A DNA stretch of 64,000 nt, taken from contig JAQYVZ010000008.1 of assembly GCA_030145205.1 (NCBI GenBank), forward strand, positions 15,978 through 79,977, in the 5' to 3' direction. Within the stretch, counting starts at the first letter, position 1. Every line of letters begins with the position of its first letter. Under the pieces are notes generated by a model. It had not been told where the DNA came from, did no database searches, and was given only the letters and a program-made list of their open reading frames with translations. This document shows positions 17,696 through 24,605 of the stretch, one piece after another. Source of the stretch: Desulfuromonadales bacterium. Its GTDB lineage: Bacteria > Desulfobacterota > Desulfuromonadia > Desulfuromonadales > BM103. The translations under genes and the position numbers were made by a program.

Positions 17696-17772
17696 TGCGG
17701 GGTGGAGCAGTCAGGTAGCTCGTCGGGCTCATAACCCGAAGGTCAGAGGTTCAAATCCTCTCCCCGCTACCA
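17696..17772 (+). tRNA. tRNA-Met (CAT), initiator type (fMet)
   Basis: Near-identical in layout to E. coli tRNA-fMet. It has an unpaired 1:72 position (T/T), three G-C pairs closing the anticodon stem (GGG CTCATAA CCC), and an encoded CCA. Confidence 0.88.
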
Positions 17773-17777
17773 ATAAA
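17727..17777 (+). repeat. attL core: 51-bp direct repeat (3' half of the tRNA)
   Basis: Matches 24522-24572 at 49 of 51 positions. The two differences (17746 G/C, 17760 C/G) are compensatory in the T-stem. Confidence 0.85.
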
Positions 17778-17782
17778 ATCAA

Positions 17783-17812
17783 GGACTTGCGTTAATTCGC
17801 AGGTCCTTTTTT
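17783..17812 (+). terminator. rho-independent terminator after the tRNA (island-side copy)
   Basis: GGACTTGCG-ttaatt-CGCAGGTCC followed by a T-run. It is homologous to the terminator at 24578-24605. Confidence 0.7.
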
Positions 17813-17817
17813 ATTGC

Positions 17818-17840
17818 CCTGTACCCTAAATTGTACCCTA
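17818..17840 (+). repeat. tandem TGTACCCTA motif pair (candidate integrase arm site, left)
   Basis: CCTGTACCCTAAATTGTACCCTA. A near-identical copy lies at 24384-24406 in the same orientation. Confidence 0.6.
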
Positions 17841-17873
17841 GGGCCTGCGTTAACACAGGATAGGAGTACAGTT

Positions 17874-19001
17874 ATGGCAAGTCTCAAGAAACGGGGTAAA
17901 AGTTACTACGCTCAATATTATGCAGGCACTCGGCAGCGCCGGGTGTGCCTGCATACCTCTTCGCTGCAAATCGCCAAGGAAAAAGTCAGGCAGATTGAGT
18001 CAGCGCAACTCAGGGGGATGGATAACCCTCTCCCGACCCGCACGCTTTTACATAAGGTTGTGCAAGCCTATCTTCAATATCTCCCCACAGTCAAAACCGT
18101 CGCGAATATTCGGCGTGATGCCTACTACCTGAGAAGCGCATTTGGACAAATCTGCCCAGAGTTGGAAATTAAGAATGAGAAGATCAGCCGTAAGGGGATT
18201 AAGTGCCCGAGCCGGAAAGAAGCGCTACCGATCCAGGTGAAATATTTTGAACAGGTAACAACACGCGACATTGCCGACTTTATTGCCGCCCAAGTTCGAA
18301 ATAAGGCACTGGCACCGAAAACGGCAAACCATTACCGGACGATACTGACTCGCCTCTATAACTGGGCCATGAGTCAGTATGGAATTAGGATGCCTAATGA
18401 CAGGAACCCGGCGTCGAAAGTGGAGCGCTACAAGGAGAAGGCCCCCAATATTCGTTTTCTGTCTTTGGCGCAAATTGACGAGCAGTTGAAATCTTTGGAG
18501 GGACAGCCTCAGTTGCAGGCAATGGTAGCGGTTTATATCTACGCTGGGTTGAGAAGGGAAGAGGCGCTTTGGTTGACGGTGGATGACATGGATTTTGATG
18601 CTGGGCCAAATGGGATGCTTCGGGTTCAGGCTAAAACGGTTGATGGTGAATCTTGGGAGCCGAAGACTAAGATTAATCGAGTGGTGCCGATTAGTAGTGC
18701 GCTTCGTAAATATCTGGATCAGTATGAGGTGGTGGAGTCTGATGGTGGGTGGTTTTTCTCAAGCTCGAAGGGAATGTGCTGGGATGTAAATAACTTTTCG
18801 AGAGAGTTGAGGAAGGTCAATCAGGCGAGCGAGCTTCCTTGGACAAATCTAGATTATCGGCACACTTTTGGTAGCCAGCTTGCCATGAAAGGGGAAAGCC
18901 TGTATAAAATCTCTAAATTAATGGGAAATTCCCCAGAGATTTGCCGTAGGCATTATGCTGCTTTAGTTCCAGAATCATTAGTTGATTCTGTTGAGTTCTG
19001 A
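17874..19001 (+). CDS. int: tyrosine-type site-specific integrase
   Basis: Begins MASLKKRGKSYYAQYY. C-terminal catalytic signature is GLRREEAL...YRHTFGSQLA...CRRHYAAL. Sits next to a tRNA. Confidence 0.9.
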   Translation: MASLKKRGKSYYAQYYAGTRQRRVCLHTSSLQIAKEKVRQIESAQLRGMDNPLPTRTLLHKVVQAYLQYLPTVKTVANIRRDAYYLRSAFGQICPELEIKNEKISRKGIKCPSRKEALPIQVKYFEQVTTRDIADFIAAQVRNKALAPKTANHYRTILTRLYNWAMSQYGIRMPNDRNPASKVERYKEKAPNIRFLSLAQIDEQLKSLEGQPQLQAMVAVYIYAGLRREEALWLTVDDMDFDAGPNGMLRVQAKTVDGESWEPKTKINRVVPISSALRKYLDQYEVVESDGGWFFSSSKGMCWDVNNFSRELRKVNQASELPWTNLDYRHTFGSQLAMKGESLYKISKLMGNSPEICRRHYAALVPESLVDSVEF

Positions 19002-19002
19002 G

Positions 19003-23299: not shown

Positions 23300-23323
23300 G
23301 GTAGTTGAATACTCTGGTAGTTG
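23300..23323. promoter_or_regulatory. direct GGTAGTTG repeats (candidate operator) in a divergent promoter region
   Basis: GGTAGTTG occurs at 23300-23307 and 23316-23323, a 16-bp register. Located between the RHH gene (-) and the Nudix gene (+). Confidence 0.4.
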
Positions 23324-23451
23324 TCAAGGGGGAAGTTCATGTAAGAAATTTACGTTCGTTGGGGTAGCCAAAATGATCACATGACTATTTTGAGTTATGT
23401 GTTAAGGTTTTTTTCTAGTGATTAAACAAGAGATTTGGTACAGGGGTGGTT

Positions 23452-24372
23452 ATGAGAGATTTTAGCCTTTTGGCGATTTTAGTCAGTGTGGTTAGTGCAG
23501 TGGTTGCTCTTTTGTCAGCAAGGCATGCAAGAAAAACTTTTCAAGAGAATAGGAACATCTCTTATCTAAATTTTTACAATATTATTCAGAAACATCACTC
23601 CAGAGAAATTACAGATTTAAGAAGAACTGTCAGAGATGGCTTCAAAGTTGTTGCTGAAACAGCAAGAAAAAAAGGTCTGCCTATTAAAGATATAGATGAA
23701 AGTATGCATTTAGAGGTTTCAACTCTAGCTAATTATTATGAATCTTTAGGGATGTTTTTACAGGGTGGATGGCATTTTTTTCCAAAAGAAGTGCAGGAGA
23801 CAATGTTGGAAATGCTCCATAACTCTGCAACTGAGCATTGGAGCCAACTAGCTCCATATAAGGATTTGATTCACCCAAGACGTCCAAATGATTGGGCGAA
23901 GAGTTTTGAGTGGTTAAATAACAAGTGTGTTGCGTATCGAAAGGAACATAAAATCGAGAATGCAGATAAGCTTGTCGGCACTTCAATTATTTTTGTTAAT
24001 TCACAAAATAAGGTTCTGCTATTACTTAGAGACGATAAACCGACAATAAAGTATCCCAATATGTGGGATATCCCGGGTGGTAATCTTGAGGCGAGCGAAA
24101 CGCCTCAAGAATGTATAAAAAGAGAAATGAAAGAAGAGCTTGGTCTTGCACTTGAAAAGCTAGATTTGTTCGAGTGCAGAGAGTTCAATGATAGAATCGA
24201 ATATACGTTTTGGCGAGAAAAGGACATAGATATCGCAAGTGTCAACTTGACCGAAGGCCAAAAAATCGAATGGTTCTCAGCTGAAGAAATTAGCGGGATG
24301 GAGCTTGCCTTTGAATTTAATGTAACGCTCGAATCCTTTTTTGAGCAGACCCCATTCAAAAGAACAGAATAA
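23452..24372 (+). CDS. membrane-anchored helical domain fused to a NUDIX hydrolase domain
   Basis: N-terminal TM segment LLAILVSVVSAVVALL, then a ~170-aa helical region. Canonical Nudix box GGNLEASETPQECIKREMKEELGL at 24076-24147. Confidence 0.8.
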   Translation: MRDFSLLAILVSVVSAVVALLSARHARKTFQENRNISYLNFYNIIQKHHSREITDLRRTVRDGFKVVAETARKKGLPIKDIDESMHLEVSTLANYYESLGMFLQGGWHFFPKEVQETMLEMLHNSATEHWSQLAPYKDLIHPRRPNDWAKSFEWLNNKCVAYRKEHKIENADKLVGTSIIFVNSQNKVLLLLRDDKPTIKYPNMWDIPGGNLEASETPQECIKREMKEELGLALEKLDLFECREFNDRIEYTFWREKDIDIASVNLTEGQKIEWFSAEEISGMELAFEFNVTLESFFEQTPFKRTE

Positions 24373-24383
24373 AAGAAAGCTGG

Positions 24384-24406
24384 CCTGTACCCTAATATGT
24401 ACCCTA
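24384..24406 (+). repeat. tandem TGTACCCTA motif pair (candidate integrase arm site, right)
   Basis: CCTGTACCCTAATATGTACCCTA. Matches 17818-17840 at 21 of 23 positions. Confidence 0.6.
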
Positions 24407-24521
24407 AATGCTTGCAAACATGGCTGAGATGCGTTATATGGTAAGACATCAGGGCAATTCAAGTCTCTGAAATCGTAGCAAGTAATTGATTTGGTTGAAT
24501 AATTAAGGGGCCTCCGGAGCC

Positions 24522-24572
24522 GCTCATAACCCGAAGGTCACAGGTTCAAATCCTGTCCCCGCTACCAATAAA
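24522..24572 (+). repeat. attR core: displaced 3' half of tRNA-fMet
   Basis: Carries the anticodon loop through CCA plus ATAAA, with no 5' half upstream. Partner of 17727-17777. Confidence 0.85.
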
Positions 24573-24577
24573 GATCA

Positions 24578-24605
24578 GGGCTTGCGATTTTCGCAAGCCC
24601 TTTTT
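24578..24605 (+). terminator. rho-independent terminator (probably the native tRNA terminator)
   Basis: GGGCTTGCG-atttt-CGCAAGCCC followed by TTTTT. Confidence 0.7.

Follow-up and report, generated by a model that had tools for sequence, protein, structure and literature searches.

In the genome of a Desulfuromonadales bacterium (assembly GCA_030145205.1), a small integrative island is inserted in the gene for the initiator tRNA (tRNA-iMet), and the best reading of this locus, held at a probability of roughly 80%, is that the crossover took place in the anticodon loop and that the 3′ half of the gene that is now expressed was brought in by the island. The sequence analysed is a stretch of 64,000 nucleotides from contig JAQYVZ010000008.1 (hereafter the window; contig C64 of a 3.7-Mb assembly in 317 contigs), and all positions are counted from its first nucleotide. 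An initial annotation of the window had already proposed that an integrase-bearing island is inserted in the initiator tRNA gene, and this is borne out here.

Three tRNA genes are found in the window. The one that carries the island (17696-17772, plus strand) is called by ARAGORN as a 77-nt tRNA(CAT) with the anticodon cat at position 35 and is matched by the Rfam tRNA model with 65.6 bits, and its initiator identity, assigned in the initial annotation, is confirmed by the hallmarks that it carries. Specifically, there is no Watson-Crick pair at 1:72 (U1.U72, in the cloverleaf and in the Rfam structure line), the anticodon stem is closed by three G:C pairs (G29-31:C39-41) and the D-stem pair A11:U24 is present (both in the cloverleaf). 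Position 1:72 is U.U, C.A or C.U in the initiator tRNAs of relatives, and the U.U of the window differs from the C.A of Escherichia coli. The part of this gene that comprises tRNA positions 31-76 together with ATAAA (attachment site attL, 17727-17777) recurs on the same (plus) strand at an offset of 6,795 bp (attR, 24522-24572) with identity at 49 of 51 positions; at this orphan copy the 5′ half is absent and no tRNA is called by ARAGORN. The copies differ at two sites only (G at 17746 against C at 24541, and C at 17760 against G at 24555), and these are the two sides of a single T-stem pair, 50:64, which is G:C in attL and C:G in attR (T stem ACAGG/CCTGT), according to both the cloverleafs and the Rfam structure line. 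Both the repeat without a 5′ half and the pairing of its two differences with each other had been described in the initial annotation, and both descriptions are accurate. When the host 5′ part is joined to the orphan copy, the product folds as a normal cloverleaf (-28.7 kcal/mol, as against -28.9 kcal/mol for the intact gene).

The 6,795 bp between the tRNA copies (17727-24521) have a GC content of 27-50%, against about 60% in the flanks, and contain, starting 101 nt 3′ of the tRNA, the gene (int) for a tyrosine integrase of 375 amino acids (17874-19001, plus strand; Pfam Phage_integrase 2.4e-12, phrog_1 integrase 2e-40). An intact tRNA gene (tDNA) that shares its replicon with an equally oriented fragment of the cognate 3′ part, and an integrase gene inside the interval and adjoining the intact tDNA, are also the elements of tDNA islands in the definition given in the Islander paper (Hudson, Lau and Williams 2015, PMC4383910), in which the integrase adjoins the intact tRNA and the 3′ tDNA fragment lies in the same orientation at the far end. 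Furthermore, the octamer GTACCCTA occurs four times in the 64 kb (0.27 expected; none of 100 shuffles reached four), and all four copies lie at the two ends of the island, as two tandem dimers of the form TGTACCCTA-N3-TGTACCCTA. One dimer lies 46 nt 3′ of the tRNA (the P′ arm-type site, 17818-17840, plus strand), with equivalent dimers beside homologous integrases, and the other about 115 nt 5′ of the orphan copy (the P arm-type site, 24384-24406, plus strand); this placement is the layout expected of arm-type integrase sites on both arms of the attachment site of an excised element (attP). A conserved P-arm motif, AGTnnnTGATTT (24481-24492, plus strand), which is found once in 17000-28000, lies about 40-45 nt left of the core, and sister islands (L037-L040, L054 and L105) carry it at their right ends with the same spacing; it could be a binding site for the helix-turn-helix (HTH) protein of the island or for a host bending factor. 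The island is real and well delimited, and its integrative competence is probably still present.

The evidence for the position of the crossover comes from the edges of the repeat and from comparison with other members of the family. In 13 attL/attR pairs (the window and 12 others), the left edge of the identity lies at G31/C32, that is, at the 5′ edge of the anticodon loop, and the identity runs from the anticodon stem-loop to the 3′ end of the tRNA; in the pairs from Planctomycetota, where the tRNA genes do not encode CCA, it ends at position 73. With these edges at the anticodon loop and at position 73, the island carries exactly the part of the gene 3′ of the loop, which is what is needed for rebuilding it, and since the left edge is always at the anticodon loop, a crossover there is preferred. 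The fact that pair 50:64 is intact in both copies further implies that the exchange was not between positions 50 and 64. The same repeat geometry characterizes the anticodon-centred attP class, as outlined in the Islander paper (PMC4383910), and 19 bp around the loop are sufficient for the integrase of ICEAfe1, as cited in a preprint (bioRxiv 10.1101/2020.11.02.365908).

Two further loci favour an island-borne 3′ half in the expressed gene. In the first, L158, one island has inserted into the ancestral arrangement. The displaced half there carries the T stem GGAGG/CCTCC (the commonest of the family), with the ancestral hairpin and then the next tRNA behind it, and the expressed half carries a rare T stem, GGAAG/CTTCC, beside the island terminator and arm repeats; GGAGG/CCTCC is also present in G021, which is among the closest relatives of L158 that have an unoccupied site. 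The second, L157 (a Logan contig from SRR16297624, 1-9770), encodes an integrase that is 83% identical in protein to that of the window together with different cargo, and joins the allele AGAGG/CCTCT to a P′ arm identical to that of the window. The first nucleotide of this contig corresponds to tRNA position 52 and the last to position 51, and the two ends abut without gap or overlap into a perfect attP that matches the one predicted for the window; it may be an excised or replication-initiator (Rep)-maintained circle, or an integrated copy between identical repeats, and the abutting ends are no more than suggestive of excision. Judging from the left edge of the identity and from these two loci, tRNA positions 1 to about 33 are most likely of host origin and the gene from the anticodon loop onward is most likely island-borne, so that the expressed tRNA-fMet would be a host/island chimera, as the initial annotation had suggested.

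In mechanistic terms, the integrase would recombine the attP of the island with the chromosomal tRNA-iMet inside the 7-nt anticodon loop (17728-17734, CTCATAA, the proposed overlap). In order, the attP would run from the P arm and its GTACCCTA dimer through the core and the island's private copy of tRNA positions ~32-76 to a terminator of its own, the second GTACCCTA dimer and int; its predicted extent is well delimited, at about 255 bp (24381-24521 joined to 17727-17873). The expressed gene would then be host DNA up to the loop, followed by island DNA that supplies the T arm with 50:64 as G:C together with the 3′ acceptor strand and its CCA, and also the terminator, and the 3′ part used previously (50:64 as C:G) would be displaced 6.8 kb downstream as attR. 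The island-borne intrinsic terminator of the rebuilt gene (17781-17814, plus strand; GGACTTGCG-TTAATT-CGCAGGTCC and a T run, called terminator-like with its hairpin at 17781-17808) would also shield int from the tRNA promoter. The natural markers on either side of the T loop permit a simple recombination assay by which the crossover could be placed.

The similarity between the two ends continues past the tRNA. The hairpins at 17781-17808 and 24577-24601 are both called terminator-like, with 11 pairs and a T run each and fold energies of -18.6 and -20.3 kcal/mol, respectively, and the similarity reaches beyond them into arm-like direct repeats (17815-17840 versus 24611-24636), that is, further than in the initial annotation, where it had been followed into both hairpins. 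Over the 101 nt 3′ of the tRNA the alignment score is 19 (shuffle mean 1.5, maximum 12; none of 2000 shuffles reached 19), and the score of the post-terminator part alone was matched by 5 of 5000 shuffles. The hairpin at the displaced end, GGGCTTGCG-ATTTT-CGCAAGCCC, is of the island type, and the arm repeats that follow it are in register and degenerate (GTTCCCTGAGTTGTCCCCTG).

The initial annotation had regarded 24522-24605 as the native 3′ end with its native terminator, and had predicted that an empty site would read as the 5′ half followed by this segment. The first of these views is not supported. A hairpin of the type GGGACTTGC...GCAGGTCCC with a T run, then two direct arm repeats and then int, lies beside family integrases in all sampled phyla, and the hairpin and the paired arm repeats are conserved beside the integrases of Planctomycetota, Hydrogenedentota, Nitrospirota and Desulfobacterota, even where the target is a tRNA other than tRNA-Met; the native terminators behind the Planctomycete attR sites are unrelated to this type. 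The unoccupied sites of Geobacteraceae (which are relatives at genus or family distance) carry a different, GC-rich hairpin that is directly followed by a tRNA(CAT) and tilS. In addition, the P′ arm of L157 aligns to 24543-24635 at 81% by blastn, and the same kind of hairpin with decayed repeats and no integrase is found in G009. The probable source of the displaced end, with the island-type terminator and the decayed arm repeats that follow it, is therefore a previous island of this family, the body of which has since disappeared. More specifically, 24522-24636 is probably a P′ arm remnant of that older island (with the terminator and degenerate arm repeats at 24577-24636, plus strand) rather than a native terminator, and the extended homology past the tRNA probably reflects island turnover. 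The displaced end was thus in use before the present island arrived, yet probably derives from an island itself. The simplest course of events is one of serial insertion, in which an earlier island would have restored the gene by means of a 3′ half and a terminator that it carried, and would then have lost its body, before the present island entered the restored gene. This would amount to serial accretion at a hot-spot where, in the ancestor, tRNA-iMet and the next tRNA were only about 40 nt apart.

Several observations weigh against this account, and two of them concern the displaced end. Hairpins of the GGGACTTGC type follow tRNA-iMet without an integrase in several relatives (L006, L007, L008, L012, L014 and L142), which leaves room for the capture of a host terminator by the island lineage. 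Moreover, neither an integrase remnant nor a distal attachment site was found downstream of the displaced end (a third site was sought in 24640-27323, where the score was no better than in shuffles), so that the relic would have to be a scar of about 115 nt. Together with the host-like GC content of the genes after the displaced end, these points are what can be said for the alternative in which 24522-24605 is truly the native 3′ end and terminator and the island lineage once captured the 3′ flank of a Geobacteraceae tRNA-iMet. This alternative is nevertheless unlikely, given that the hairpin and paired arm repeats accompany the integrases of Planctomycetota, Hydrogenedentota and Nitrospirota, as well as those beside tRNAs other than tRNA-Met, that the terminators on the attR side in those phyla are unrelated, that the unoccupied sites behind ArgS and SPOR carry a different hairpin and then directly the next tRNA, and that arm-like repeats follow the displaced hairpin in register.

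The other points bear on the crossover in the anticodon loop, the position of which is read from repeat boundaries and comparison. The island of G002, from the same genus, has a P′ arm nearly identical to that of the window and a T stem that differs by two pairs. In G019 (L044 = L038, G019:C46) pair 27:43 is C:G in the expressed gene, and position 43 of the displaced half is an A that would mispair with C27. Both cases are easier to explain if the exchange lies further 3′; for G019, the mismatch may have arisen through a compensatory change after integration, through drift of the orphan or because the crossover lay 3′ of position 43. If the strand exchange took place beyond the T stem, in the region of the acceptor strand or CCA, the T arm now expressed (AGAGG/CCTCT) would be that of the host, the orphan ACAGG/CCTGT would come from attP, and the island would supply only the last few bases and the terminator. 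This would suit the 94-100% identical P′ arms that the islands of G002 and the window share in spite of their different T stems, G001 and G002 would, as members of the same genus, share one host allele, and the G019 case would require no extra mutation. Such an exchange leaves unexplained, however, why every attP of the family has a perfect copy of positions 31-66 with sharp edges at the anticodon loop and at 73. Furthermore, L157 ties AGAGG/CCTCT to the same island lineage, the allele beside the ancestral downstream sequence in L158 is the family's commonest GGAGG/CCTCC (also in G021), and repeat geometry of this kind is treated as anticodon-centred where the Islander paper (PMC4383910) deals with it; an exchange 3′ of the T stem is accordingly considered rather improbable. 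A last point against the proposed reaction concerns the integrase itself, in which R227, the lysine in EPKTK, R329 and Y361 of the R-K-H-R-H/W-Y set are present, but LDYRHTF has Leu (L326) in place of the HxxR histidine, and MGNSP has Asn (N352) in place of the last His/Trp (G-N for G-H/W). Neither replacement varies in an alignment of five sequences and, on that comparison, the two are regarded as a family trait and not as decay. Finally, the idea that the 3′ half of the tRNA was duplicated locally, or that a second tRNA gene has decayed, and that foreign DNA is bracketed by chance has nothing but the bare repeat in its favour and is hardly credible, as an integrase adjoins the tRNA, arm sites lie at both ends and only there, the repeat has a sharp edge at the anticodon loop, and the same architecture is found in dozens of genomes with the site unoccupied in relatives.

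The two T stems can be placed among those of intact initiator genes. No other pair of the initiator tRNA varies as much in these lineages as 50:64, which among 71 distinct intact genes is G:C in 30, C:G in 20, U:A in nine, U:G in seven, A:U and G:U in two each and unpaired in one. The stem of attL, AGAGG/CCTCT, occurs in intact genes of G020, of Geobacter metagenome-assembled genomes (MAGs) and of many metagenome contigs, and that of attR, ACAGG/CCTGT, in intact genes of G023, Geobacter MAGs and the metagenome contig L142; the suggestion in the initial annotation that the copies represent distinct functional alleles and not a recent duplication is thus borne out by the intact initiator genes of relatives and metagenomes. 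A second attL/attR pair with a compensated T-stem difference is present in G023. Such differences therefore recur, as would follow from islands that move among hosts with different alleles, and the compensatory pair is a neat natural marker, but an expected one.

The integrase belongs to a large family. There are 1,731 proteins that are close homologues at E<=1e-50, and 270 family loci (52-72% identity) in species-representative genomes of Desulfobacterota, Planctomycetota, Nitrospirota, Hydrogenedentota and others; the named relatives with a family integrase are MAGs of Geobacteraceae and Desulfuromonadales. The targets were surveyed for the family integrase genes in 80 loci. An intact initiator tRNA gene lies at most 420 nt upstream on the same strand in 60 cases, and in 15 only an orphan 3′ half lies upstream, mostly in tandem arrays, with a few contig-edge or variant cases. 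Six integrase genes have neither, being beside other tRNAs, at a contig edge or, in one case, a weak second integrase match. In L091, L104 and L106, family integrases lie behind non-initiator tRNAs, yet with the same GGACTTGC-type terminator and paired arm repeats; these three loci suggest target switches within the family. Sister islands retain a backbone of int, HTH and Rep and exchange their cargo, which in L157 comprises a HinfI restriction-modification system and AAA_15/DUF3226 proteins and in L158 a CHAT protein and BglII.

The ancestral state of the site is apparent from its neighbours. Upstream, the order ArgS, SPOR-domain protein, tRNA-iMet is conserved in relatives, and in four genera (G013, G018, G021 and G034), which represent unoccupied sites at genus or family distance, it continues with a short GC-rich hairpin and, after about 40 nt, a second tRNA(CAT) and tilS. 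This second tRNA(CAT), which is found about 40 nt after tRNA-iMet or its displaced half in these four genomes and in L158, is in the window at 27324-27400 (plus strand); it is probably an elongator tRNA-Met and marks, as the ancestral direct neighbour of tRNA-iMet, the far side of the insertion hot-spot. The gap between the two tRNAs is 9.5 kb in the window, comprising the 6.8-kb island, the orphan half and genes for a glutaredoxin-like, an old-yellow-enzyme and a cNMP-binding protein. At the same site in G002 lies a sister island with int 79% identical in DNA and a P′ arm 94% identical, between host flanks of about 69%; being more alike than the flanking chromosome, this island fits a mobile element. 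Its orphan half, the core of which lacks the anticodon-loop part, directly precedes the cNMP-binding gene. The window segment 24725-26467, with the glutaredoxin-like and old-yellow-enzyme genes, is absent from the same interval in G002 (L034, G002:C87), and the hot-spot therefore holds at least one further insertion or deletion difference. Exact-protein look-ups of the flanking SPOR and glutaredoxin-like proteins yielded no other assembly of the same species with an empty site. Likewise, a scan of metagenomes with both alleles of the 51-nt repeat returned 31 contigs, all with intact initiator tRNA genes, and neither a same-species empty site nor an attP. The nearest of the metagenome contigs, L142, has the 5′ half of the window, the T stem ACAGG/CCTGT and ArgS-SPOR upstream at about 71% DNA identity.

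As for the content of the island, a cargo operon (19003-21086, plus strand, GC 27-42%) follows the integrase and encodes a GHKL-ATPase-like protein (phrog_3364), a DUF4325 STAS-like protein and a membrane protein of 194 amino acids. On the minus strand lie a small HTH_17/AlpA-excisionase-like protein (21139-21414; weak matches to Pfam HTH_17 and phrog_66 excisionase), which is a candidate excisionase (Xis) and is 64-74% conserved in sister islands, a rolling-circle-type replication initiator (21323-22519; weak matches to Pfam Rep_trans and phrog_453), which is 44-64% conserved, and a tandem ribbon-helix-helix (RHH) regulator (22784-23272; Pfam RHH_1; 44% in L037). The initiator scores 19.4 bits against Rep_trans (PF02486), under the cut-off of 29.6, its homologue in L157 has a weak match to Phage_CRI, and sequence searches of NCBIfam and PDB found no further relative; it is therefore named only ‘Rep_trans-like’. 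The last gene, for a DUF4760-NUDIX hydrolase (23446-24372, plus strand; Pfam NUDIX 9e-18), is a cargo gene and the sole match to a PADLOC candidate system (PDC-S07, 5e-17). The element combines a backbone of integrase, AlpA-like HTH protein, Rep_trans-like initiator and RHH regulator with variable cargo that looks like anti-phage defence. The possibility of a prophage or satellite was considered and rejected, as no structural or virion genes are found among the island proteins with PHROGs, nor any capsid-hijacking or packaging genes, and the viral contigs of IMG/VR contain two weak matches to the family integrase and no more. The islands of this family are therefore not regarded as prophages, and in its behaviour the present one resembles a small integrative and mobilisable element that is possibly self-replicating.

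Two more tRNA(CAT) genes are present in the genome, the one at 27324-27400 upstream of tilS, which is elongator tRNA-Met-like, and one at C280:82615-82690, which is tRNA-Ile2-like; the tRNA next to tilS may therefore not be a substrate of TilS. The only other assembled initiator tRNA gene (L002) lies on contig C208 (1-1586) of the same assembly, with C1.A72 and the T stem GAAGG/CCTTC. Behind it come a terminator of the island type, GTACCCC repeats and the gene for an integrase of 64% identity, which the contig end truncates; with a length of 1.6 kb, the contig could have been mis-binned. On contig C61 of this assembly, a further orphan copy of the tRNA-iMet 3′ half, the third (L004, C61:6446-6491; T stem ATCGG/CCGGT, identity from the CAT anticodon), adjoins very large minus-strand genes that resemble a methyltransferase/helicase defence system, with neither the family HTH nor Rep nearby. 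The remainder of the C208 island, and a link between it and the orphan on C61, were sought and are not in the assembly.

Parallels can be drawn with several known systems. In the accretion of ICESt1 and ICESt3 in Streptococcus thermophilus, elements insert repeatedly into a rebuilt attachment site, and older ones lose their integrase and leave remnants (cis-mobilizable elements, CIMEs). In comparison with these, the remnant in the window is only about 115 nt long (3′ half, terminator and decayed arm repeats) and lacks a second attachment site, being a scar that is not mobilisable. The pSAM2-type elements of actinomycetes, which carry int, xis and a rolling-circle Rep, occupy the 3′ end of tRNA-Pro. 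Like pSAM2, the island is a small tRNA-integrated element with an integrase, an excisionase-like HTH protein and a rolling-circle-type Rep, and by analogy it may replicate after excision; the likeness is one of gene content, as no transfer genes were found among the island genes, the Rep is recognized from weak Rep_trans and Phage_CRI matches, and the hosts are Desulfobacterota and Planctomycetota. Small integrative elements and satellites may carry defence islands, and here too genes of the defence type occupy variable cargo slots (PDC-S07 NUDIX in the window, and the cargo of L157 and L158), but unlike satellites the family is nearly absent from IMG/VR and has no genes for capsid hijacking or packaging among those found. 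The islands described in the Islander paper (PMC4383910) likewise restore the tRNA gene and occur in tandem arrays. Distinctive features here, known from sequence alone, are the initiator tRNA as target, the unusual conservation of the family from phylum to phylum (54-83% protein identity), and the presence, between the tRNA end and int, of a terminator that is conserved and of arm repeats that form a fixed pair.

The locus is a clear but ordinary example of tRNA genes collecting foreign DNA, and the current understanding of tRNA-targeted integration is unchanged by it. Nevertheless, it illustrates that part of an essential tRNA can be foreign in origin, and that an integrase family that is large and targets initiator tRNA genes in at least four phyla ferries defence-type cargo. 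It also calls for caution in annotation, as a ‘native’ 3′ end beside an island may itself be the scar of an older one. It may further be proposed, although tentatively and with more doubt than confidence, that the 3′ half and terminator of the initiator gene are a horizontally exchanged module, overwritten by successive islands of one cross-phylum integrase family. If this were true, decayed islands would leave a tRNA half, a terminator and arm repeats as the new ‘native’ end, and island traffic, rather than slow compensatory mutation, would generate the T-stem diversity at 49:65 and 50:64. A family integrase lies directly behind both of the assembled initiator tRNA genes of this genome, and every initiator tRNA made by the cell could then be a host/island chimera.

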